Sequence record: PZ452582.1
DNA length: 64,000 nucleotides
Source of the DNA: a phage
Reading direction: 5' to 3' (one strand)
Part shown: positions 4,868 through 64,000 of the stretch, in pieces
Numbering within the stretch: the first letter of the stretch is position 1
Layout: each line of letters begins with the position of its first letter
Program-made: the position numbers and the translations under genes
The notes under the pieces: model-generated
What the model was told of the DNA's origin: nothing
The model's input: only the letters and a program-made list of their open reading frames with translations
The model's database searches: none

Positions 4868-4890
4868 AGGGACCTCCGGGTCCCTTTTTC
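4868..4890 (+). terminator. Rho-independent terminator (AGGGACC-TCCG-GGTCCCT, T5)
   Basis: 7-bp stem followed by TTTTT just after gp43 stop. Confidence 0.7.
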
Positions 4891-4971
4891 ATACAAGTAA
4901 TATAAATCTATACTTATGAAAAACAGATGATTCTGGACCTTTAGAATTCCCTAAAAAATTTTCACAAAACT

Positions 4972-5001
4972 GTTTACAAGACTGTTCTTCCATGGTACTA
5001 T
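4972..5001 (+). promoter_or_regulatory. T4-type early promoter (GTTTAC -35, TGGTACTAT extended -10)
   Basis: GTTTAC at 4972-4977, 18-nt spacer, TACTAT at 4996-5001; same cassette recurs at several other sites. Confidence 0.6.
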
Positions 5002-5038
5002 ACAACTATCAACTACTGATACAGATTTGGAGAATAAA

Positions 5039-5275
5039 ATGAAAATTGTTATGGGATGCTTAGCAGTTTGTTTAGTTGCATTAGCAGCAGTTCCATTTGT
5101 TAGTGTTGAAAATGATACTCAACCTGCGATTGAATCTAGCACCGTTATTCACACTAATGGTAAAATATCAGTTAAAATTGATGATAATCTTCATGTGAAT
5201 ACAAATGGATCTTTAGGTGTGCAAATGGGTAATACCTGCATAAGCACTACTGGAGTAATTACTACTTGCATTTGA
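5039..5275 (+). CDS. Small secreted protein (signal peptide), function unknown
   Basis: GGAGA RBS 5 nt upstream of ATG; N-terminal hydrophobic signal MKIVMGCLAVCLVALAAVPF. Confidence 0.55.
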   Translation: MKIVMGCLAVCLVALAAVPFVSVENDTQPAIESSTVIHTNGKISVKIDDNLHVNTNGSLGVQMGNTCISTTGVITTCI

Positions 5276-5285
5276 GGAAATTATT

Positions 5286-5666
5286 ATGAAAATCGCTATT
5301 TTGGTTATTGCATTAGGTCTTACTGGTTGTGTAGCTCAAGGACCGGTAGTAAATCAGTCTGATGTAGGAAAAATTGTAAACTGTTCAAGCAAATTTTATA
5401 ATCCTAATGTCAAGTGTTATAAAGAAGCTCCAAAGCAAACAGTAGAACAAATGCAGGCGAATTTTGACGAAGCTATTCGTCCAGATGAATCTGCTCAAGC
5501 ATATCGTAATTCGGATGTAATTACACGCGAAGAAAAAATTGAAAATTACTGCGCCGAGCTTTGGGCTAATTGGGCTAATAATTACCAATGGCGTACTGGT
5601 AAAAATGCTCCGATGGAGTATGTAGTGAATTCTTATAATTCATGTGTAAAAAATTTGACTAAGTGA
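5286..5666 (+). CDS. Putative lipoprotein (LTGC lipobox), function unknown
   Basis: N-terminus MKIAILVIALGLTGC is a type II signal peptide with lipobox cysteine. Confidence 0.55.
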   Translation: MKIAILVIALGLTGCVAQGPVVNQSDVGKIVNCSSKFYNPNVKCYKEAPKQTVEQMQANFDEAIRPDESAQAYRNSDVITREEKIENYCAELWANWANNYQWRTGKNAPMEYVVNSYNSCVKNLTK

Positions 5667-6080: not shown

Positions 6081-6821
6081 ATGATTAGTGACTCTATGAC
6101 AGTTGAAGAAATCCGTCTTCATTTGGGGCTTGCATTAAAAGAAAAAGATTTCGTAGTTGATAAAACCGGTGTTAAAACTATTGAAATTATTGGCGCATCA
6201 TTTGTAGCAGATGAACCGTTTATTTTTGGTGCTCTTAATGATGAATACATTCAGCGTGAACTTGAATGGTATAAATCTAAGAGCTTGTTCGTTAAAGATA
6301 TTCCAGGTGAAACACCGAAGATTTGGCAACAAGTAGCATCTTCTAAAGGCGAAATTAACTCGAACTATGGTTGGGCTATTTGGTCAGAAGATAACTATGC
6401 CCAGTATGATATGTGTTTAGCTGAACTTGGTCAAAATCCTGATTCTCGACGTGGTATCATGATTTATACTCGTCCATCCATGCAATTTGACTACAATAAA
6501 GATGGTATGTCAGATTTCATGTGTACTAATACAGTACAGTACCTGATTCGTGATAAGAAAGTCAATGCAGTAGTAAGCATGCGCTCAAATGACGTGGTCT
6601 TCGGATTCCGTAATGATTATGCATGGCAAAAATACGTATTAGATAAATTAGTATCTGATTTGAATGCCGGCGATTCATCTCGTCAGTATAAAGCAGGTTC
6701 TATTATATGGAATGTCGGAAGTCTTCATGTATATTCTCGTCATTTTTACTTGGTTGATCATTGGTGGAATACTGGCGAAACTCATATTGTGAAAAAAGAC
6801 TATAAAGGTGAGTGGAAATGA
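6081..6821 (+). CDS. 42: dCMP hydroxymethylase gp42
   Basis: 246 aa, same as T4 gp42; thymidylate-synthase-like fold sequence recognised. Confidence 0.92.
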   Translation: MISDSMTVEEIRLHLGLALKEKDFVVDKTGVKTIEIIGASFVADEPFIFGALNDEYIQRELEWYKSKSLFVKDIPGETPKIWQQVASSKGEINSNYGWAIWSEDNYAQYDMCLAELGQNPDSRRGIMIYTRPSMQFDYNKDGMSDFMCTNTVQYLIRDKKVNAVVSMRSNDVVFGFRNDYAWQKYVLDKLVSDLNAGDSSRQYKAGSIIWNVGSLHVYSRHFYLVDHWWNTGETHIVKKDYKGEWK

Positions 6822-10693: not shown

Positions 10694-10722
10694 TTTACAA
10701 GCTGACAAGACTATGGTATAGT
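10693..10722 (+). promoter_or_regulatory. T4-type early promoter
   Basis: GTTTAC then 18-nt spacer then TATAGT, upstream of dmd. Confidence 0.55.
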
Positions 10723-10751
10723 AGTCTTGTTGGTTAAATGAGGAGATTGTT

Positions 10752-13934: not shown

Positions 13935-13978
13935 ATGTCCTCCTTTAAATTAATATTTATCACAAATTTCATAAATTT

Positions 13979-14008
13979 GTTTACTTTCTCAGCTTGTTAT
14001 GGTATTAT
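13979..14008 (+). promoter_or_regulatory. T4-type early promoter
   Basis: GTTTAC at 13979-13984, TATTAT at 14003-14008, upstream of the 14034 ORF. Confidence 0.5.
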
Positions 14009-14033
14009 AAAATAAATTGCTGAGGATGATATA

Positions 14034-15373
<1,340 letters not shown>

Positions 15374-15433
15374 CTGCTTACATATTCAAATGATATAATT
15401 ATTTAACTTATTAATGAATTGAAAGGAAAAATA

Positions 15434-16618: not shown

Positions 16619-16645
16619 AAGGACTCCTTCGGGAGTCCTTTTTCA
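16619..16645 (+). terminator. Rho-independent terminator (AAGGACTCC-TTCG-GGAGTCCTT, T4)
   Basis: 9-bp stem, TTCG tetraloop, then TTTTC immediately after soc. Confidence 0.75.
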
Positions 16646-16653
16646 TTTAAACG

Positions 16654-16683
16654 GTTTACATATCAAAATGAGTATGGTATAAT
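16654..16683 (+). promoter_or_regulatory. T4-type early promoter
   Basis: GTTTAC at 16654-16659, TATAAT at 16678-16683. Confidence 0.55.
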
Positions 16684-16709
16684 AGAATTATCTTATAGAG
16701 GAGAGCACT

Positions 16710-16916
16710 ATGTTAAATCGCTGGATTAAACCAAATGAAGATTTAGATATTATCATTTCACGACATGTAATGAAGAAATATGAACTACAGCCATGGTCTA
16801 CAGAAGTTGTTGTGCATTCATTTATGATGTACGCAGATGGTTCTGTTGAATTTAATGCAGAGATTCGATATGATTATGGCGAGAAGCAAGTCGAATTTAA
16901 GAGAGGCTTTTTGTAA
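16710..16916 (+). CDS. Hypothetical protein
   Basis: 68-aa ORF after promoter and GGAG RBS. Confidence 0.45.
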   Translation: MLNRWIKPNEDLDIIISRHVMKKYELQPWSTEVVVHSFMMYADGSVEFNAEIRYDYGEKQVEFKRGFL

Positions 16917-18745: not shown

Positions 18746-18776
18746 TGTTTACTTTCCTTTCTAACGATGATATGAT
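18746..18776 (+). promoter_or_regulatory. T4-type early promoter
   Basis: GTTTAC at 18746-18751, TATGAT at 18771-18776. Confidence 0.5.
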
Positions 18777-18802
18777 AGCTTCTGAAGTATACGGAGGCTA
18801 TC

Positions 18803-19426
18803 ATGATTATTAATCCTGCAGATGTTGAACAGTTATCTATAAAAGCTGAAAGCGTTGATTTTCAATATGATATGTATAAAAAAGTCTGTGAAAAATTTAC
18901 TGACTTCGAGCAGTCTGTTCTTTGGCAATGTATGGAAGCCAAAAAGAATGAAGCTCTTCACAGACAGTTGAATAAAATCATTAAAAAGCATTTAACTAAA
19001 TCGCCTTATCAATTATATCGTGGTATATCAAAATCGACAAAAGAACTTATTAAAGATTTACAGGTTGGAGAAGTGTTTTCAACGAACAGGGTAGATTCAT
19101 TTACTACTAGTTTACACACAGCGTGTTCTTTTTCTTATGCTGAATATTTCACTGAAACAATACTTCATTTAAAAACTGATAAAGCTTTTAATTATTCTGA
19201 CCATATCAGCGATATTATACTTTCTTCTCCTAATACTGAGTTTAAGTATACATATGAAGATACTGATGGATTAGATTCAGAGCGTACTGATAACTTAATG
19301 ATGATTGTGCATGAACAAGAATGGATGATTCCAATTGGAAAGTATAAAATAACTTCTATTTCAAAAGAAAAATTACACGATTCATTTGGAACATTTAAAG
19401 TTTATGATATTGAGGTAATTGAATGA
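18803..19426 (+). CDS. modB: ADP-ribosyltransferase ModB
   Basis: 207 aa, same as T4 ModB; R-S-ExE triad (YRG, STN, EQEWMIP). Confidence 0.7.
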   Translation: MIINPADVEQLSIKAESVDFQYDMYKKVCEKFTDFEQSVLWQCMEAKKNEALHRQLNKIIKKHLTKSPYQLYRGISKSTKELIKDLQVGEVFSTNRVDSFTTSLHTACSFSYAEYFTETILHLKTDKAFNYSDHISDIILSSPNTEFKYTYEDTDGLDSERTDNLMMIVHEQEWMIPIGKYKITSISKEKLHDSFGTFKVYDIEVIE

Positions 19427-23945: not shown

Positions 23946-23975
23946 GTTTACTTCCTCGGTTAGTTGTGGTATTAT
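23946..23975 (+). promoter_or_regulatory. T4-type early promoter
   Basis: GTTTAC at 23946-23951, TATTAT at 23970-23975. Confidence 0.5.
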
Positions 23976-24002
23976 AACACCATAGCTACTGAGGATAATA
24001 AA

Positions 24003-24506: not shown

Positions 24507-24516
24507 AGAGAAAATT

Positions 24517-24954
24517 ATGATTAAAAATAATGCTGTTTATCAATTGAAAAAATTTGATGAAATTAAGAATTTTTCGGTACTGTCTAATACAGCTCATAAT
24601 AAGTTTTGTGAACTTCTTGGTTTAACTGGCGGATATCCTTTTACTGTTATTAGTGTTAATAGCGGAATTCTTATCGGTATGATGTATATTGAAATTAGAA
24701 ACTATTATGGAATGGTATCACCGCTTATTATTTATGAAAAAGATTTTAGTCTATTGATAGAAATTGAAAAACCTGAAGATCCAACTGATCTACTGTGTAA
24801 GGCAGTTTATATTCGTCGTCCATTCGCGAATCCTGTGGGTGGATGGGTGACTGATCAGTGGATTGAAGATGGTGTTGAACTTCTGAACGTAGTTCATGCT
24901 GGAGAGTACTCTGTAGTTCCTCGCAGCGCAGTGATTAATGTTCGTGTAAGCTAG
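24517..24954 (+). CDS. Hypothetical protein, paralog of next ORF (MotB-like region)
   Basis: 145 aa; C-terminal TDQWIEDGVELLNVV...VVP shared with the 25028 ORF. Confidence 0.5.
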   Translation: MIKNNAVYQLKKFDEIKNFSVLSNTAHNKFCELLGLTGGYPFTVISVNSGILIGMMYIEIRNYYGMVSPLIIYEKDFSLLIEIEKPEDPTDLLCKAVYIRRPFANPVGGWVTDQWIEDGVELLNVVHAGEYSVVPRSAVINVRVS

Positions 24955-25027
24955 TTTACAAACTCTTGGGACCAGAGTATAATGGTCCCGTGGAGTATAA
25001 AATCTTTTTAACAAGTGAGAGATAACT

Positions 25028-25519: not shown

Positions 25520-25616
25520 AGTTTAAAATTTTTTCATAAAACTATATACATCAGTAGTTGATTATGGTACTATATCAATATCAACTACTGATACAGAAAA
25601 TAACTTGGAGAATAAA

Positions 25617-25886
25617 ATGGAAAATTTAATTATCATCGAGCAATCTTTCAATGATTATGGTATGGCTTACGGTTATCGTGTGATAATGGAAGATTCTCGT
25701 GGATGTGTTATCGATATTGCTGAATGTAAAGATTTACTGCAGCTTTTGAAGATTGTTCGCAAAAATTGGGATTGCGAAAATATTAAAGTTCGAGTTGTTA
25801 CAGAAGAAGAAACTGTTTTTCATGATGTAAAATTCGCTAAAGGTGCTGCTACTCTTCTGAAACGTATCGCTCCAATGTTTAATTAA
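25617..25886 (+). CDS. Hypothetical protein
   Basis: ATG 25617 after GGAG RBS preferred over TTG 25605. Confidence 0.45.
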   Translation: MENLIIIEQSFNDYGMAYGYRVIMEDSRGCVIDIAECKDLLQLLKIVRKNWDCENIKVRVVTEEETVFHDVKFAKGAATLLKRIAPMFN

Positions 25887-31696: not shown

Positions 31697-32635
31697 ATGT
31701 ACAATATTAAATGCCTGACCAAAAACGAACAAGCTGAAATTGTTAAACTGTATTCAAGCGGTAATTACACCCAACAGGAATTGGCTTATTGGAAGGATGT
31801 ATCGGTTGACACAATCCGTCGTGTTTTGAAAAATGCTGAAGAAGCTAAACGCCCTAAAGTTACTATTAGCGGTGATATTACAGTTAAAGTTAATAGCGAT
31901 GCAGTTATTGCTCCAGTTGCTAAATCTGACATTATTTGGAATGCATCTAAAAAATTCATTTCAATTACTGTTGATGGTGTAACTTATAACGCAACTCCTA
32001 ATACTCATTCAAACTTCCAGGAAATTCTTAATCTGCTTGTTGCAGATAAATTGGAAGAAGCGGCGCAAAAAATTAATGTTCGTCGCGCTGTTGAAAAATA
32101 TATTTCCGGTGATGTTCGAATTGAAGGTGGAAGCTTGTTCTATCAAAATATTGAATTGCGGTCTGGTTTAGTTGATCGTATTCTCGATTCGATGGAAAAA
32201 GGTGAAAACTTTGAATTTTATTTTCCGTTCTTGGAAAATCTGCTGGAAAACCCGAGCCAAAAAGCGGTATCTCGACTCTTTGATTTCTTGGTAGCAAACG
32301 ATATTGAAATTACAGAAGATGGCTACTTCTATGCTTGGAAAGTAGTTCGTAGTAATTACTTTGACTGCCATTCAAATACTTTTGATAACAGTCCCGGTAA
32401 AGTAGTTAAAATGCCACGTACTCGTGTGAATGACGATGATACACAAACTTGTTCTCGTGGTCTGCATGTGTGTTCTAAATCTTATATTCGTCACTTTGGT
32501 AGTTCAACCAGCCGAGTTGTAAAAGTTAAAGTACATCCTCGCGATGTAGTATCAATTCCGATTGATTACAACGATGCTAAAATGCGTACCTGCCAATACG
32601 AAGTAGTTGAAGACGTTACTGAACAATTTAAATAA
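31697..32635 (+). CDS. rIIB: rIIB protein
   Basis: 312 aa, same as T4 rIIB; directly follows rIIA. Confidence 0.9.
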   Translation: MYNIKCLTKNEQAEIVKLYSSGNYTQQELAYWKDVSVDTIRRVLKNAEEAKRPKVTISGDITVKVNSDAVIAPVAKSDIIWNASKKFISITVDGVTYNATPNTHSNFQEILNLLVADKLEEAAQKINVRRAVEKYISGDVRIEGGSLFYQNIELRSGLVDRILDSMEKGENFEFYFPFLENLLENPSQKAVSRLFDFLVANDIEITEDGYFYAWKVVRSNYFDCHSNTFDNSPGKVVKMPRTRVNDDDTQTCSRGLHVCSKSYIRHFGSSTSRVVKVKVHPRDVVSIPIDYNDAKMRTCQYEVVEDVTEQFK

Positions 32636-32858: not shown

Positions 32859-32862
32859 AATA

Positions 32863-32880
32863 AGGGGCTTCGGCCCTTTT
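32863..32880 (+). terminator. Terminator-like hairpin (GGGC-TTCG-GCCC, T4)
   Basis: Short GC stem with TTCG loop followed by TTTT. Confidence 0.45.
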
Positions 32881-33226: not shown

Positions 33227-33716
33227 CTTGACTAGTGAAATGAAGGTCAAAATTGCTGATACAGCAAGATACTCTTTAAAACAAAACCCGAACCAGGATA
33301 AAGCAGAAGTTATTGAAAGATGTCGTATCGCTGTGTACGCAGAATTTTTTGTAGCAGATTGGTTAAGCGGGTATGTTAATAAAGGCCAAGAGGATGTTAA
33401 TGACCCGTATACATACGCATGGGATGTATTGGCGCATCCAAGATACTGCGGGCTTCGTGTAGAAGTTAAGACACACCAAACTGACTCACGTTGGATTTCT
33501 GTAACAACAGGATGCAGCGGAGAGTATCCATACGGTTCTGGAATAAATCTAGGGCCCATTCTAAATCATCAAGTCGCTGACTGTATAATTATATTCAACA
33601 CTAAAGAAATTCATCCAGGTGTCATCCAGTACACTCCGAAGTTCATCGGTGACAGAGAAGACCTTCGTAAGGTTGTAAGAAAAAGCAACTACAACGGATG
33701 GTATCTTTCCATTTAA
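33159..33716 (+). CDS. denB: DenB endonuclease IV
   Basis: 185 aa, same as T4 DenB; position after rIIB; start could instead be ATG 33240. Confidence 0.7.
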   Translation: MQKTNPGLQRLFQIPTFTLSNGDLTSEMKVKIADTARYSLKQNPNQDKAEVIERCRIAVYAEFFVADWLSGYVNKGQEDVNDPYTYAWDVLAHPRYCGLRVEVKTHQTDSRWISVTTGCSGEYPYGSGINLGPILNHQVADCIIIFNTKEIHPGVIQYTPKFIGDREDLRKVVRKSNYNGWYLSI

Positions 33717-33733
33717 AAAATTTTCACAAAACG

Positions 33734-33773
33734 GTTTACATACCACAAGGACTGTGGTACTATACAACTATCG
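33734..33773 (+). promoter_or_regulatory. T4-type early promoter
   Basis: GTTTAC at 33734-33739, TACTAT at 33768-33773; same cassette as at 4972, 37548, 54582. Confidence 0.55.
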
Positions 33774-33790
33774 GCTACGGAGGAGTAAAA

Positions 33791-34054: not shown

Positions 34055-34239
34055 GTTCATTGTGGTGGTGTTTTGTTTGGTTAATTAGTATTCCATTAAT
34101 TTGTTTAACATTTACTTTTGTAATGAGGTTATTATGAAAATTTTGAATTCTGTACTTATTGCTTGTGCATGGTGGGTTGCGCAAGTTTCAGCGGTAGTAG
34201 TTGGTATTCACATTTATTACGAATATTTTTAAAAAAGTT

Positions 34240-34269
34240 GTTTACAAGACTGTTCCTCTGTGGTATTAT
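34240..34269 (+). promoter_or_regulatory. T4-type early promoter
   Basis: GTTTAC at 34240-34245, TATTAT at 34264-34269. Confidence 0.5.
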
Positions 34270-34297
34270 TACCCTATCAACTACGGAGGAACAGAAA

Positions 34298-36011: not shown

Positions 36012-37340
36012 ATGCAACTGAATAATCGCGATTTAAAAAGTATCATTGATAATGAAGCATTGGCTTATGCTATGTACACGGTTGAAAATCGTGCTATTCC
36101 AAATATGATTGATGGATTTAAGCCAGTTCAACGATTTGTTATTGCTCGAGCTCTTGATTTGGCACGAGGAAATAAAGATAAGTTTCACAAACTCGCTTCT
36201 ATTGCAGGTGGTGTAGCGGACCTTGGATATCACCATGGTGAAAACTCTGCACAAGATGCGGGGGCTTTGATGGCTAACACTTGGAATAATAACTTTCCTT
36301 TGTTAGATGGTCAAGGAAACTTTGGTTCTCGTACCGTTCAAAAAGCAGCAGCAAGTCGTTATATTTTTGCTCGTGTAAGTAAAAATTTCTATAACGTATA
36401 TAAAGATACTGAATATGCTCCGGTACATCAAGATAAAGAACACATTCCGCCTGCTTTCTATTTGCCTATTATTCCTACTGTTCTTCTTAATGGCGTTTCC
36501 GGTATTGCAACTGGTTATGCAACTTACATTCTTCCTCATAGTGTTTCTTCTGTCAAGAAAGCTGTACTGCAAGCTCTTCAAGGAAAGAAAGTAACTAAAC
36601 CGAAGGTAGAATTCCCAGAATTTCGTGGTGAAGTCGTTGAGATTGACGGTCAATATGAAATTCGTGGAACGTACAAGTTTACTTCACGAACTCAAATGAA
36701 TATCACTGAGATTCCGTATAAGTATGATCGTGAAACTTATGTGAGTAAAATCTTAGACCCACTTGAAGATAAAGGCTTCATTACATGGGATGATGCTTGT
36801 GGTGAGCATGGCTTTGGCTTCAAAGTTAAATTCCGTAAAGAATATTCTTTGAGCGATAACGAAGAAGAACGCCATGCAAAAATTATGAAAGACTTCGGGT
36901 TGATTGAGCGTCGTTCTCAGAATATTACGGTTATTAATGAAAAAGGAAAACTACAAGTTTACGATAACGTAGTCGATTTAATTAAAGACTTTGTTGAAGT
37001 TCGTAAAACTTATGTCCAAAAACGAATTGATAATAAAATTAAAGAAACTGAGTCAGCTTTTCGTTTAGCCTTTGCCAAGGCGCATTTCATTAAGAAAGTA
37101 ATTTCAGGTGAAATTGTTGTTCAAGGTAAAACTCGTAAAGAACTGACCGAAGAACTTTCGAAAATTGAGATGTATTCTTCTTATGTTGATAAACTAGTCG
37201 GAATGAATATTTTTCATATGACTTCCGACGAAGCAAAGAAACTTGCTGAAGAAGCTAAAGCTAAGAAAGAAGAAAACGAATATTGGAAAACTACTGATGT
37301 AGTTACAGAATACACCAAAGATTTAGAGGAAATCAAATGA
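36012..37340 (+). CDS. 52: Topoisomerase II medium subunit gp52 (GyrA-like)
   Basis: 442 aa, same as T4 gp52; sequence recognised. Confidence 0.92.
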   Translation: MQLNNRDLKSIIDNEALAYAMYTVENRAIPNMIDGFKPVQRFVIARALDLARGNKDKFHKLASIAGGVADLGYHHGENSAQDAGALMANTWNNNFPLLDGQGNFGSRTVQKAAASRYIFARVSKNFYNVYKDTEYAPVHQDKEHIPPAFYLPIIPTVLLNGVSGIATGYATYILPHSVSSVKKAVLQALQGKKVTKPKVEFPEFRGEVVEIDGQYEIRGTYKFTSRTQMNITEIPYKYDRETYVSKILDPLEDKGFITWDDACGEHGFGFKVKFRKEYSLSDNEEERHAKIMKDFGLIERRSQNITVINEKGKLQVYDNVVDLIKDFVEVRKTYVQKRIDNKIKETESAFRLAFAKAHFIKKVISGEIVVQGKTRKELTEELSKIEMYSSYVDKLVGMNIFHMTSDEAKKLAEEAKAKKEENEYWKTTDVVTEYTKDLEEIK

Positions 37341-37486: not shown

Positions 37487-37491
37487 TTTTA

Positions 37492-37518
37492 GGGAGAGCC
37501 TCGGCTCTCCCTTTTTTA
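37492..37518 (+). terminator. Rho-independent terminator (GGGAGAGC-CTCG-GCTCTCCC, T6)
   Basis: 8-bp stem followed by TTTTTT, then a 14-nt A run. Confidence 0.75.
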
Positions 37519-37547
37519 TTTCAAAAAAAAAAAAAATTCACAAAACG

Positions 37548-37577
37548 GTTTACAACCAAAGCATACTGTGGTACTAT
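37548..37577 (+). promoter_or_regulatory. T4-type early promoter
   Basis: GTTTAC at 37548-37553, TACTAT at 37572-37577, upstream of motA. Confidence 0.55.
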
Positions 37578-37618
37578 ACAACTATCAACTGCTGATACAG
37601 AATTACGGAGATTAGAAA

Positions 37619-54531: not shown

Positions 54532-54557
54532 GGGGACCTCTAGGGTCCCCTTTTTTA
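54532..54557 (+). terminator. Rho-independent terminator (GGGGACC...GGTCCCC, T6)
   Basis: 7-bp GC stem followed by TTTTTT after gene 32. Confidence 0.75.
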
Positions 54558-54581
54558 TTTCAAAAATTTTTTCACAAAACG

Positions 54582-54612
54582 GTTTACATCCTTGTTCTTC
54601 CGTGGTACTATA
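54582..54612 (+). promoter_or_regulatory. T4-type early promoter
   Basis: GTTTAC at 54582-54587, TACTAT at 54607-54612. Confidence 0.55.
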
Positions 54613-54654
54613 CAACTATCGGCAATACTGCTGATGATTAAAGAGGAAAATAAT

Positions 54655-54882
54655 ATGGCTAAAGTTGATATTGACATCGTTGATTTTGAATATATTGAAG
54701 AAATTATTCGTAATCGTTATCCTGAACTTAGTATCACAAGCGTGCAAGATTCTAAGTTTTGGAGTATTCAAATCGTTATTGAAGGTCCTCTTGAAGACCT
54801 CACCCGCTTTATGGCTAATGAATATTGCGATGGCATGGATTCTGAAGACGCAGAATTTTACATGGGACTGATTGAACAATAA
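54655..54882 (+). CDS. Hypothetical acidic protein (frd.x region)
   Basis: 75 aa from ATG 54655 after GAGGAAAA RBS; track start 54592 lies within the promoter. Confidence 0.45.
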
Positions 54883-54928
54883 TTATCAAGGGGCTATTTG
54901 ATAGCCCCGTTAAAATGAGGAAATCAAA

Positions 54929-55316: not shown

Positions 55317-55577
55317 ATGACTAAAGATGATTTCCTGGATGCGGTAGAAAAAGCTAGTGAGAAATTTGAAGTGATGGGTGTACGGGTCCATAAAGACAGA
55401 AATTACGGACTCGATATTCAAACGTATTCGTTATGGCTTGTGGGTGAACACAGTCTTGTAACCAGTTTAGTTATGGGTGTCGATACCTATCCTCTATTGG
55501 TTAAGTTCAGAAGTATGGAAAAGGCTACTAAAGAAATGATTAAGCTTGGTAAGTGGCTCGATAAAATTCAAAAATAA
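55317..55577 (+). CDS. Hypothetical protein
   Basis: 86 aa from ATG 55317. Confidence 0.45.
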   Translation: MTKDDFLDAVEKASEKFEVMGVRVHKDRNYGLDIQTYSLWLVGEHSLVTSLVMGVDTYPLLVKFRSMEKATKEMIKLGKWLDKIQK

Positions 55578-55579
55578 TT

Positions 55580-55609
55580 GTTTACAACAGGGTAGTAGTG
55601 TGATACTAT
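55580..55609 (+). promoter_or_regulatory. T4-type early promoter
   Basis: GTTTAC at 55580-55585, TACTAT at 55604-55609. Confidence 0.5.
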
Positions 55610-55635
55610 TACCCTATCAACTTGAGGAGAATAAA

Positions 55636-55878
55636 ATGAGATTACAACGCCAGAGCATCAAAGATTCAGAAGTTAGAGGTAAATGGTATTTTAATATCAT
55701 CGGTAAAGATTCTGAACTCATTGAAAAAGCTGAACATCTTTTACGTGATATGGGATGGGAAGATGAATGCGATGGATGTCCTCTTTATGAAGACGGAGAA
55801 AGCGCAGGATTCTGGATTTACCATTCTGACGTTGATCAGTTTAAAGCTGATTGGAAAATTGTGAAAAAGTCTATTTGA
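55636..55878 (+). CDS. Hypothetical protein
   Basis: 80 aa from ATG 55636 after GAGGAGAA RBS. Confidence 0.45.
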   Translation: MRLQRQSIKDSEVRGKWYFNIIGKDSELIEKAEHLLRDMGWEDECDGCPLYEDGESAGFWIYHSDVDQFKADWKIVKKSI

Positions 55879-58908: not shown

Positions 58909-61163
58909 TTAATGTTATCAAAAGTAGTGGTGTTTCTCAGAGCTTTGACCCACAAAAAATTATTAAAGTTTTATCTTGGGCAGCTGAGGGAACATCAGTA
59001 GATCCTTATGAATTATATGAAAATATTAAATCTTATCTCCGTGATGGAATGACAACTGATGATATTCAGACTATTGTCATTAAGGCTGCTGCGAATTCTA
59101 TTTCGGTTGAAGAGCCTGATTATCAATATGTAGCTGCACGCTGTTTAATGTTTGCTCTTCGTAAGCATGTTTACGGGCAGTATGAACCGCGTTCATTTAT
59201 TGACCATATTTCTTATTGCGTAAATGAAGGGAAATATGACCCTGAATTATTGTCAAAATATTCTGCGGAAGAAATTACATTTTTAGAATCAAAAATTAAG
59301 CACGAGCGGGATATGGAATTTACTTATTCCGGAGCGATGCAATTAAAAGAAAAATATCTAGTCAAAGATAAAACCACCGGTCAAATTTATGAAACTCCAC
59401 AGTTTGCATTTATGACTATTGGAATGGCATTGCATCAAGATGAACCTGTTGATAGATTAAAACACGTTATTCGTTTTTATGAAGCAGTATCTACTCGACA
59501 GATTTCACTACCAACTCCTATTATGGCTGGTTGCCGTACTCCAACTCGGCAGTTTAGTTCATGCGTTGTTATTGAAGCAGGTGATTCATTAAAGTCTATC
59601 AATAAGGCTTCCGCTTCAATTGTTGAATATATCTCTAAACGCGCTGGAATTGGTATTAACGTTGGTATGATTCGTGCTGAAGGTTCTAAGATTGGCATGG
59701 GTGAAGTACGCCATACTGGTGTTATTCCTTTTTGGAAACATTTTCAGACTGCTGTTAAATCATGCTCACAGGGTGGAATTCGTGGCGGCGCTGCTACTGC
59801 TTATTATCCTATTTGGCATTTGGAAGTTGAAAATCTTCTTGTTTTGAAAAATAACAAAGGCGTAGAAGAAAACCGCATTCGTCATATGGATTATGGTGTT
59901 CAACTGAATGATTTGATGATGGAACGTTTTGGAAAGAACGATTACATTACTTTGTTCAGTCCCCATGAAATGGGCGGAGAGCTTTATTATTCTTATTTTA
60001 AAGACCAAGACCGTTTCCGTGAATTATACGAAGCAGCAGAAAAAGACCCTAATATTCGTAAAAAGCGTATTAAAGCCCGTGAACTATTTGAATTGCTCAT
60101 GACTGAACGCTCAGGAACAGCAAGAATTTATGTACAGTTCATTGATAATACGAATAACTATACTCCGTTTATTCGTGAAAAGGCACCTATTCGTCAGAGT
60201 AACTTGTGCTGTGAAATTGCTATTCCAACAAATGATGTGAATAGTCCTGATGCTGAAATTGGATTGTGTACTCTCTCTGCATTCGTACTGGATAATTTTG
60301 ACTGGCAAGACCAAGATAAAATTAATGAATTGGCAGAAGTCCAAGTTCGTGCTCTTGATAATCTTTTGGATTACCAAGGATATCCAGTTCCTGAAGCAGA
60401 AAAAGCTAAAAAGCGTCGTAACCTCGGTGTAGGTGTTACTAACTATGCAGCTTGGCTGGCAAGTAACTTTGCTTCTTATGAAGATGCTAACGATTTAACA
60501 CATGAACTATTTGAGAGATTACAATATGGACTCATTAAAGCATCCATTAAGCTCGCCAAAGAAAAAGGACCTTGCGAATATTATTCAGACACTCGTTGGT
60601 CTCGAGGCGAATTACCTATCGACTGGTACAATAAAAAGATTGACCAAATCGCAGCTCCAAAATACGTTTGTGACTGGTCGTCGCTGCGGGAAGACCTTAA
60701 GCTCTTTGGCATCCGTAATAGCACACTATCAGCACTTATGCCATGTGAGTCATCTTCCCAAGTTTCTAACAGTACAAACGGTATCGAGCCTCCACGTGGA
60801 CCAGTCTCTGTTAAAGAATCAAAAGAGGGTTCCTTTAATCAAGTCGTGCCCAATATTGAACATAACATAGACCTATATGATTATACATGGAAATTAGCTA
60901 AGAAAGGTAATAAACCTTATCTTACGCAGGTAGCTATTATGCTGAAATGGGTATGTCAATCAGCTTCAGCGAATACATATTATGACCCGCAGATTTTTCC
61001 AAAAGGAAAGGTTCCAATGTCAATAATGATTGATGACCTTTTGTATTTTTGGTATTTTGGCGGAAAAAATTTCTATTATCATAATACCCGTGATGGTTCT
61101 GGTACTGATGATTATGAAATAGAAACTCCAAAAGCTGAAGATTGCGCAGCGTGTAAATTGTAA
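58899..61163 (+). CDS. nrdA: Aerobic ribonucleotide reductase large subunit NrdA
   Basis: 754 aa, same as T4 NrdA; sequence recognised. Confidence 0.95.
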   Translation: MQLINVIKSSGVSQSFDPQKIIKVLSWAAEGTSVDPYELYENIKSYLRDGMTTDDIQTIVIKAAANSISVEEPDYQYVAARCLMFALRKHVYGQYEPRSFIDHISYCVNEGKYDPELLSKYSAEEITFLESKIKHERDMEFTYSGAMQLKEKYLVKDKTTGQIYETPQFAFMTIGMALHQDEPVDRLKHVIRFYEAVSTRQISLPTPIMAGCRTPTRQFSSCVVIEAGDSLKSINKASASIVEYISKRAGIGINVGMIRAEGSKIGMGEVRHTGVIPFWKHFQTAVKSCSQGGIRGGAATAYYPIWHLEVENLLVLKNNKGVEENRIRHMDYGVQLNDLMMERFGKNDYITLFSPHEMGGELYYSYFKDQDRFRELYEAAEKDPNIRKKRIKARELFELLMTERSGTARIYVQFIDNTNNYTPFIREKAPIRQSNLCCEIAIPTNDVNSPDAEIGLCTLSAFVLDNFDWQDQDKINELAEVQVRALDNLLDYQGYPVPEAEKAKKRRNLGVGVTNYAAWLASNFASYEDANDLTHELFERLQYGLIKASIKLAKEKGPCEYYSDTRWSRGELPIDWYNKKIDQIAAPKYVCDWSSLREDLKLFGIRNSTLSALMPCESSSQVSNSTNGIEPPRGPVSVKESKEGSFNQVVPNIEHNIDLYDYTWKLAKKGNKPYLTQVAIMLKWVCQSASANTYYDPQIFPKGKVPMSIMIDDLLYFWYFGGKNFYYHNTRDGSGTDDYEIETPKAEDCAACKL

Positions 61164-61804
61164 TGAATTATCAAAACGTATATAATAGTTTAATTTCCCG
61201 GGCTCAAACCCGGGAACCTTTATTAGGATATAAAGAGACTCATCATATAATCCCTAGATGTATGGGAGGTTCTGATGATAAAGAAAATTTAGTTGAATTA
61301 ACAGGTAGAGAGCATTTTATAGCTCATTGGCTTTTATGTAAAATATATGACACCCCAGGATTAAAGAAAGCTTTTGGTTTAATGTGCTTGACTGGTAAAA
61401 ATCGCTCATATAAAATTTCTTCTCAACTGTACGAATTAGGTAGACGACGTTTATCTGAAGCTGCTATAGGACGTGAAGTTTCTATAGAAACCAGAGAAAA
61501 GATAAGTAGAGCCCTTAAAGGAAGGAAATTTACCAAAGAGCATTTAGCTCACATGAGAAAACCTAAAACCGAAGAAGCTAAAAAGAATATAGCTGCTGCT
61601 AAAGTCGGCGTGCTTAATCCGATGTATGGTACAATCTCTCCGACAAGAGATGTTCCTCATACTAAAGAAACCCGTGATTTGATTTCTTTGAGAACTAAGC
61701 AAGGTACAGAGTATCCGCCTTGTCCGCATTGTGGCAAGAAAGTTAATAAAGGCAATGCTTTAAGATGGCATTATGATAAATGTAAATTTAAGGATTCTAA
61801 ATGA
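61163..61804 (+). CDS. Free-standing HNH homing endonuclease (MobE-like) between nrdA and nrdB
   Basis: 213 aa; HNH motif HHIIPRCMGG...N...H; three NUMOD-like repeats; TAATG and ATGA overlaps with both neighbours. Confidence 0.75.
   Translation: MNYQNVYNSLISRAQTREPLLGYKETHHIIPRCMGGSDDKENLVELTGREHFIAHWLLCKIYDTPGLKKAFGLMCLTGKNRSYKISSQLYELGRRRLSEAAIGREVSIETREKISRALKGRKFTKEHLAHMRKPKTEEAKKNIAAAKVGVLNPMYGTISPTRDVPHTKETRDLISLRTKQGTEYPPCPHCGKKVNKGNALRWHYDKCKFKDSK

Positions 61805-63006: not shown

Positions 63007-64000
<994 letters not shown>

Follow-up and report, generated by a model that had tools for sequence, protein, structure and literature searches.

What are the hairpin and promoter repeats that recur between the early genes of T4-type phages, and how much of the gain and loss of small genes around them can they account for? 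We followed up this question in a 64,000-nt stretch of phage DNA (record PZ452582.1, here called the window), in which the first-pass annotation had described four nearly verbatim cassettes, several diverged relatives and a resemblance to promoter-early stem-loop modules (PeSLs). On the sequence comparisons described below, the cassettes are very probably T4-type terminator/early-promoter punctuation units, that is PeSLs, which exchange sequence with one another and explain a minority of the indels. The window belongs to a T4/T2/T6-like Tequatrovirus, with about 98% identity to Tequatrovirus teqdroes; an 8-kb piece of it had matches in 950 phage records, with Escherichia phage teqdroes at the top (98.1%). 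It is collinear with T4, PST, RB14, RB32, wV7, T6 and T2, and the comparison covered annotated regions of these seven and of teqdroes (n=8), together with IMG/VR contigs.

According to the gene maps of relatives, the early-gene coding strand of T4 is the + strand of the window. Its gene order is 44/62/regA/43, imm, 42, uvsX, 41, 61, dam, 56, soc, mrh, modA/B, srd, dda, dexA, motB, cef, 39, rIIA, rIIB, denB, ndd, 52, motA, arn and asiA. After asiA comes the tail-fibre block t-38-37-36-35-34 on the opposite strand, followed by rnh, 33, 59, 32, frd, td, nrdA, nrdB and denA. Genes in the window were called with our own heuristic ORF caller plus manual patches, and these calls were used for the junction statistics. 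An Rfam search of the whole window returned zero matches at the gathering threshold.

All copies of the cassette lie on the + strand. The four main ones share one promoter layout: a UP-like A/T block, GTTTACA, a 17-nt spacer ending in TGG, TACTAT and ACAACTATC, downstream of which a short leader carries a GGAG ribosome-binding site. Copy 1, the early promoter of the imm.1/imm cluster, spans 4952..5038 (UP-like block 4952-4971, -35 4973-4978, TGG and -10 TACTAT 4996-5001, ACAACTATC, leader, Shine-Dalgarno (SD) sequence GGAGAATAAAA 5029-5039, ATG 5039). Copy 2, an early promoter in the gap between denB and the ndd.x small-ORF cluster, occupies 33714..33790 (-35 33735-33740, -10 33758-33763, ATG 33791). 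The motA early promoter, copy 3, runs from 37527 to 37618 (GTTTACA from 37548, -10 37572-37577, SD GGAG, ATG 37619), and copy 4, the frd.3 early promoter, from 54562 to 54654 (-35 54583-54588, -10 54606-54611, ATG 54655). The repetition is real and greatly exceeds chance: exact occurrences of TTCACAAAACKGTTTACA lie at 4961, 33723, 37537 and 54571 (6 matches with up to 3 mismatches, 0.24 expected) and TGGTACTATACAACTATC exactly at 4993, 33755, 37569 and 54603 (5 matches with up to 3 mismatches, 0.03 expected). "Near-verbatim" nonetheless holds only for two 18-nt blocks, which are identical among the copies because they are polymerase-recognition sequence. Because the leaders and 14 bases of the spacer vary between copies, identity over the whole aligned cassettes is 71-84%, and the longest exact runs are 18-22 nt.

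The A/T block together with TTCACAAAAC agrees with the UP-element consensus pattern AAAWWTWTTTTNNNAAA, which reportedly stems from the work of Estrem et al. in 1998. Copy 4 is an exact match to AAAWWTWTTTTNNNAAA-NNN-GTTTAC and copies 1 and 2 have two mismatches each. In the four-copy family this pattern sits 1 nt nearer to the -35 than the textbook distance; the sole match of the pattern scan at the textbook distance is at 34219. Compared with other T4 early promoters (Pe), the four copies form a tight subfamily, with TACTAT rather than TATAAT and with ACAACTATC and TTCACAAAAC in addition. One complete IMG/VR genome of 169,650 bp has seven copies of the exact-motif cassette, and the window has four in 64 kb. 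A 5'-terminal leader hairpin (TATCA...TGATA) common to the family was considered and rejected: only the leader of copy 4 folds convincingly (a 7-bp 5' hairpin, -7.6 kcal/mol, z -3.0), and the other leaders reach -0.6 to -1.2 kcal/mol (z > 0).

Three of the four diverged copies proposed earlier, near 25530, 34230 and 55578, are relatives of the main four, but the last, near 63418, is not. The copy at 25530..25616 (the 25544 copy, + strand) has TGG and TACTAT, a leader ATCAACTACTGATACAGA common to copies 1 and 3, and its ATG at 25617; its -35 is the degenerate ATATACA, which is kept in every relative compared. Those at 34240 and 55580 are clear T4-type early promoters (TTTACA-N17-TATTAT or TACTAT preceded by TGG), one before ndd.4 (34219..34297, + strand; -35 34241-34246, -10 TATTAT 34264-34269, ATG 34298) and the other before frd.1 (55560..55635, + strand; -35 55581-55586, -10 TACTAT 55604-55609, SD 55626, ATG 55636). 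The + strand element upstream of the RNA ligase 1 gene (63407..63469) consists of GATGCTTCC, 13 nt, and TACTAT preceded by TGG; it has no GTTTAC -35, and the 13 nt separate TACTAT from a TGCTTCC within GATGCTTCC. This looks like a MotA-dependent middle promoter rather than a member of the family. Its box deviates at the last two positions from the MotA-box consensus (a/t)(a/t)(a/t)TGCTTtA (PMC2988021), and the published table of T4 middle promoters has no entry for rnlA (RNA ligase 1).

A generic sigma-70 scan was uninformative in the AT-rich window (104, 80 and 77 sites against 90, 81 and 74 expected), and T4-specific promoter criteria were therefore adopted. The T4-specific scan yielded about 17 early promoters, all on the + (early) strand and in gene junctions. 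Absent from the first-pass list were a complete cassette at 16619..16709 and about nine more early promoters on the same strand. In the 16619 cassette, a terminator AAGGACTCCTTCGGGAGTCCTT with a T-run follows soc (-18.6 kcal/mol, z -5.1), and the promoter behind it has its -35 at 16655-16660, TGG and a perfect TATAAT at 16678-16683, and its ATG at 16710.

The GC hairpin with T-run had been taken as a general part of the cassettes. It accompanies three of the four main copies, but is missing at 33734 and stands at a distance in copy 1. The terminator scan and folding place intrinsic terminators, each with a T-run on the + strand, just 3' of gene 43 (DNA polymerase; AGGGACCTCCGGGTCCCT, 4868..4890; hairpin 4868-4885, -13.9 kcal/mol, z -2.9), 3' of motA.1 (AGGGAGAGCCTCGGCTCTCCCT, 37491..37518; hairpin 37491-37512, -18.6 kcal/mol, z -5.0) and 3' of gene 32 (GGGGACCTCTAGGGTCCCC, 54532..54556; hairpin 54532-54550, -15.2 kcal/mol). 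Orthologues of the last two are annotated as rho-independent in the wV7 record. The terminator adjoins the promoter at 37491, 54532 and 16619; at 4868 it lies about 85 nt upstream of the -35. The scan found none upstream of copy 2 (best fold -4.2 kcal/mol, z -0.8), and scan and folds likewise gave no terminator hairpin at 25544, 34240 or 55580. A convincing terminator is present at only 4 of the about 17 early promoters of the window (after 43, soc, motA.1 and 32), which sets the window apart from the published PeSLs.

The copy 4 hairpin is the orthologue of the T4 gene 32 terminator. Both stand directly after gene 32, and the 19-nt element of the window reads exactly as the reverse complement of the T4 sequence (GGGGACCCTAGAGGTCCCC plus T-run). 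The T4 gene 32 terminator is employed in the omega interposon. The terminators at 37491-37512 and 54532-54550 each have two forms, one the exact reverse complement of the other, so that the central bases are flipped. The window, PST and RB14 carry the same form at both sites, and teqdroes, T4, RB32 and wV7 the other form at both, with one discordant IMG/VR contig. Clade as the cause of this common orientation was rejected, the flanking genes showing no such grouping; the flipped loops may reflect loop inversion through template switching. Two further strong, terminator-like hairpins on the + strand, at 32862-32879 (after denB.1) and 61195-61216 (in the insert between nrdA and nrdB), have no early promoter behind them.

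How far, then, do the cassettes account for differences in gene content? Boundaries were called by chained blastn of the window against the eight genomes, giving 69 clusters outside the tail-fibre block. Those within cassettes fall mostly between the -10 and the start codon. In the cassette at 4972 they lie at 5019 and 5052; the 78-codon ORF behind copy 1 is shared by the window, teqdroes and wV7, T2 has a replacement for it and the other compared genomes lack it, and the ORF insert 5052-5286 is flanked by the repeat ATGAAAAT. The cassette at 13979 (boundaries 13945 and 13966) forms the left edge of a 1.45-kb insert containing dam, and the cassette at 25544 has a boundary at 25626. At 33734 the boundaries 33772-33783 correspond to the ndd.x exchange, a locus in common with the PeSLs of T4 and PST, for which the exchange of ndd.4/.5 against ORF268/269 has been illustrated (Comeau et al., 2014; PMC4122927). 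The cassette at 55580 has boundaries at 55567 and 55619-55625. At copies 3 and 4 there is no gene-content breakpoint among the eight genomes, and one IMG/VR contig has a breakpoint at the motA cassette. A record search around copy 2 revealed at least three arrangements among 500 records. The insert at 13946-15393 encodes a dam-like methylase and one more ORF and is common to T2 and partly to T4; the variable inserts 5039-5275 and 25617-25886 are two small ORFs directly behind early promoters.

A stronger reading, put forward in the PeSL literature (PMC2839356, PMC4122927), is that recombination between cassettes is the main source of the gene-content differences in early regions, with cassettes marking the indel boundaries. 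Promoter-bearing junctions contain a boundary in 7 of 15 cases, and against a uniform null (six genomes) the cassette junctions hold 8 of 65 boundaries in 3.8% of the sequence (p=0.003). Ordinary junctions are nevertheless equally or more enriched, with 31 of the 65 boundaries in 8% of the sequence in the same six genomes (per nucleotide, 31 in 4283 nt against 8 in 2014 nt at promoter junctions). Compared junction by junction, a boundary is present in 26 of 84 other junctions, so that the excess at promoters is not significant, either with eight genomes (Fisher p=0.25) or with six (6/15 against 26/84, p=0.55); here too the window departs from published PeSLs. The expectation that cassettes mark synteny breakpoints therefore stands for five cassettes and the motA contig, but not as a significant excess over other junctions. 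In about three quarters of the indel events both ends lie outside the cassettes. Several of these events insert a homing endonuclease or an intron (segG, mobE-like, the td and nrdB introns, segF), and many events are either of this sort or single-ORF indels at tight gene junctions. The 640-bp ORF at 61160-61800 lies between nrdA and nrdB, where T6 annotates a homing endonuclease. Among the compared genomes we found no exact cassette-to-cassette deletion, and the T2 deletion of motB.1/motB.2 has one end at a promoter -35 and the other inside an ORF. We consider this stronger reading unlikely. Judged from the alignments, the cassettes explain only a minority of the events by which genes were gained or lost in the window, most of which occur at ordinary tight junctions.

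The copies had also been said to bracket the regions richest in small ORFs. ORFs that start in the first 1 kb behind the four copies are indeed smaller than those elsewhere (median 78 against 118 aa, p=0.0025), but of the 46 small + strand ORFs only 12 are found in the 1.5 kb that follow a copy, and the cassettes stand at the 5' ends of the clusters and not on both sides.

Alternatively, each copy could independently keep an optimal RNA polymerase recognition sequence and never exchange anything with the others, and the distribution of identity in the window is what such pure functional constraint would give: the identical parts are exactly the polymerase-contacting blocks, and the intervening spacer varies among the copies. 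Orthologous copies 2 and 3 are, moreover, almost invariant across genomes. We surveyed the orthologous cassettes of the eight genomes and 27 exact-motif copies in IMG/VR contigs, and here non-functional 17-nt spacers and leaders turn out to be identical at non-orthologous sites yet different among orthologues. At the frd.3 site (copy 4), five distinct 17-nt spacers occur among seven genomes, with as many as 11 of the 17 positions differing, in flanking DNA that is 97-98% identical. The RB14 spacer there equals the motA spacer (17/17), that of RB32 equals the imm.1 spacer of wV7, and that of T4 equals the spacer of another cassette in IMG/VR genomes. The imm.1 cassette of T2 has the spacer and leader of the 34240 type of the window, followed by a different ORF. 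Leader variants are likewise common to two sites of one genome: in T4 an identical leader, extending into the first codons ATGAAAATCGCT, stands behind copies 1 and 2, and in PST both of these copies have the same 3-nt leader deletion. Finally, one IMG/VR contig has the motA terminator, promoter and spacer, with a different leader and gene straight after ACAACTATC. Given these cross-site identities of spacers and leaders, constraint alone cannot yield the patterns, and we regard it as very improbable as a full explanation.

The exchange reading, on the other hand, accommodates these cases: the alignments show that paralogous cassettes do swap internal segments, non-orthologous sites included. 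Copy 4, too, is a recombination boundary. The frd.3 gene behind it (window 54655-54900) falls into three allele classes (window and T4; teqdroes, RB14 and wV7; PST and RB32), with 97-99% identity within and 87-94% between classes. For gene 32, immediately in front of the cassette, identity is 97-98% throughout the genomes.

The idea that a site-specific recombinase or mobile element uses the repeats for attachment or as targets has almost no chance of being correct. It draws on two GenBank records: that of T6 places attL/attR on 40-bp repeats in the leaders of copies 1 and 2 (24507-24546, 36590-36629), and that of T2 does so on 20-bp repeats in the leaders of the 25.5k-type and motA cassettes (6093-6112, 32301-32320; numbering within separate retrieved regions). 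The labelled pairs, however, are spaced by over 20 kb around the genome ends, with essential genes between them, the crossovers are scattered over UP block, spacer, leader and first codons with no single core, no integrase is associated with them and T4-type phages are, to our knowledge, strictly lytic. Pairs far apart that enclose essential genes are typical of a prophage-finder artefact, and such an artefact is almost certainly what the T2 and T6 labels represent; annotators should be warned that prophage finders call these repeats attL/attR.

Reading the cassettes as exchanging punctuation units, we propose the following mechanism, in which the promoter, terminator and RegB activities are inferred from sequence features and T4 orthology. 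The upstream transcription unit would, in some copies, be closed by an intrinsic terminator. An A/T-rich, UP-like element would then precede a strong sigma-70 T4 early promoter (GTTTACA, a 17-nt spacer ending in TGn, and a TACTAT/TATAAT -10), with ACAACTATC as the putative start region. Next would come a short leader whose GGAG Shine-Dalgarno is a predicted target of the RegB endoribonuclease, and the cassette would be closed by the start codon of the first gene in a run of mostly small early genes. By analogy with established T4 biology, host RNA polymerase would fire these promoters immediately after infection and RegB would inactivate the leaders later. A cassette would in this way close one unit, open the following one at full strength and bring along a signal by which translation is shut off early. 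The copies also exchange sequence, apparently by homologous or microhomology recombination: whole sub-modules (spacer, leader/SD) are seen at non-orthologous sites in different phages, and small ORFs are gained or lost immediately after the promoter, the junctions falling in the interval from the -10 to the first codons.

The predicted role of RegB can be followed in the leaders. The strong cleavage consensus GGAGRAYARAA (PMC3014915) has three exact matches in the window, against 0.32 expected, and all three are cassette SDs on the + strand (5029-5039, 25607-25617 and 55626-55636). The mRNA of motA, cleaved by RegB in its SD, is a classical target (PMC2988021), and the T4 motA promoter with this SD is the orthologue of copy 3.

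A separate observation concerns the relation between spacer and leader. At 9-10 of the 17 early promoters, the spacer before the -10 is complementary to the leader or SD after it, forming a hairpin that encloses the promoter (-12 to -23.5 kcal/mol, z down to -6.8). Such folds, with the spacer as 5' arm and the leader/SD as 3' arm, lie at 10700-10735, 13986-14026, 18759-18805, 23953-23995, 24961-24997, 25551-25591, 34250-34294 and 55589-55615. In the hairpin at 18771-18805 the 3' arm also takes in the modB start codon, and at the ndd.4 promoter (34219..34297) the spacer pairs with the SD region. The pairing is mostly absent from the four near-verbatim copies. Substitutions among orthologues mostly preserve it, and the hairpin at 55580 occurs in haplotypes with the arms GGGTAGTA/TATTACCC and AGGCTAT/ATAGCCT. 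A transcript started at the promoter would lack the 5' arm and read-through RNA would contain it; the SD would therefore be masked on read-through RNA only. The same principle is established for the T4 genes e, soc, 49 and I-TevI, there in combination with late promoters, and a limited literature search found no description of promoter-embedded SD masking at early promoters. We tentatively suggest, as a possibility that is somewhat more doubtful than not, that the cassettes are made up of separately exchangeable sub-modules (terminator, UP block, spacer, leader/SD), that spacer-leader pairing silences the gene on read-through RNA and that the promoter offers a slot for new genes. If so, a gene behind such a promoter would be translatable from its own promoter only, selection for the pairing would explain why spacer and leader move jointly, and the site just behind an early promoter would be a self-insulating "slot" for newly gained small genes.

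Most of these elements have been described before. PeSLs were introduced for RB49/phi1 (Arbiol et al., 2010; PMC2839356) and treated for T4/PST and KVP40/nt-1 (Comeau, Arbiol and Krisch, 2014; PMC4122927). By definition a PeSL begins upstream with a stem-loop terminator, followed by an AT-rich block, then a sigma-70-like early promoter and finally SD and start codon; "degraded" or half PeSLs are counted as well (PMC4122927). The first-pass comparison with PeSLs is borne out: the TTTACA-N17-TACTAT/TATTAT of the window fits the T4/PST promoter consensus TTTACW-N17-TAYWAT (PMC4122927), and the cassettes occupy the same loci as in T4 and PST. They resemble PeSLs in having an AT-rich block, promoter, SD and ATG, and in some copies a stem-loop upstream, in occurring as several intergenic copies of the same orientation in variable early regions, and in their crossovers between -10 and SD/ATG, which have been described for PeSL mini-circles (PMC2839356; for PeSLs see also PMC4122927). 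T4 early promoters have been termed "uber UP/-35/TGn/-10" promoters with extra conserved positions (Hinton, 2010; PMC2988021), and the cassettes share with these Pe the UP element, the GTTTAC -35, the TGn, the -10, the early strand and the position upstream of early genes. By analogy, they can also be compared with the linker or boundary sequences of modular phages and with integron cassettes, where short conserved flanks accompany exchangeable, ready-to-express small genes. The cassettes of the window differ in having no dedicated recombinase or fixed crossover, and the exchange appears to be general homologous or microhomology recombination.

With architecture, consensus, location, indel association and crossover position all published, the finding is therefore already known: elements, loci and the shuffling hypothesis have been reported for T4 and its close relatives, and the window is another isolate. 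What it adds are refinements, namely that a terminator accompanies a minority of the early promoters and that, in the window, recombination between cassettes is one contributor among several and not the dominant one, most differences in gene content here coming from ordinary junctions or homing endonucleases and not from cassettes. The comparison also offers a clean confirmation that internal segments are truly swapped among paralogous promoter cassettes.
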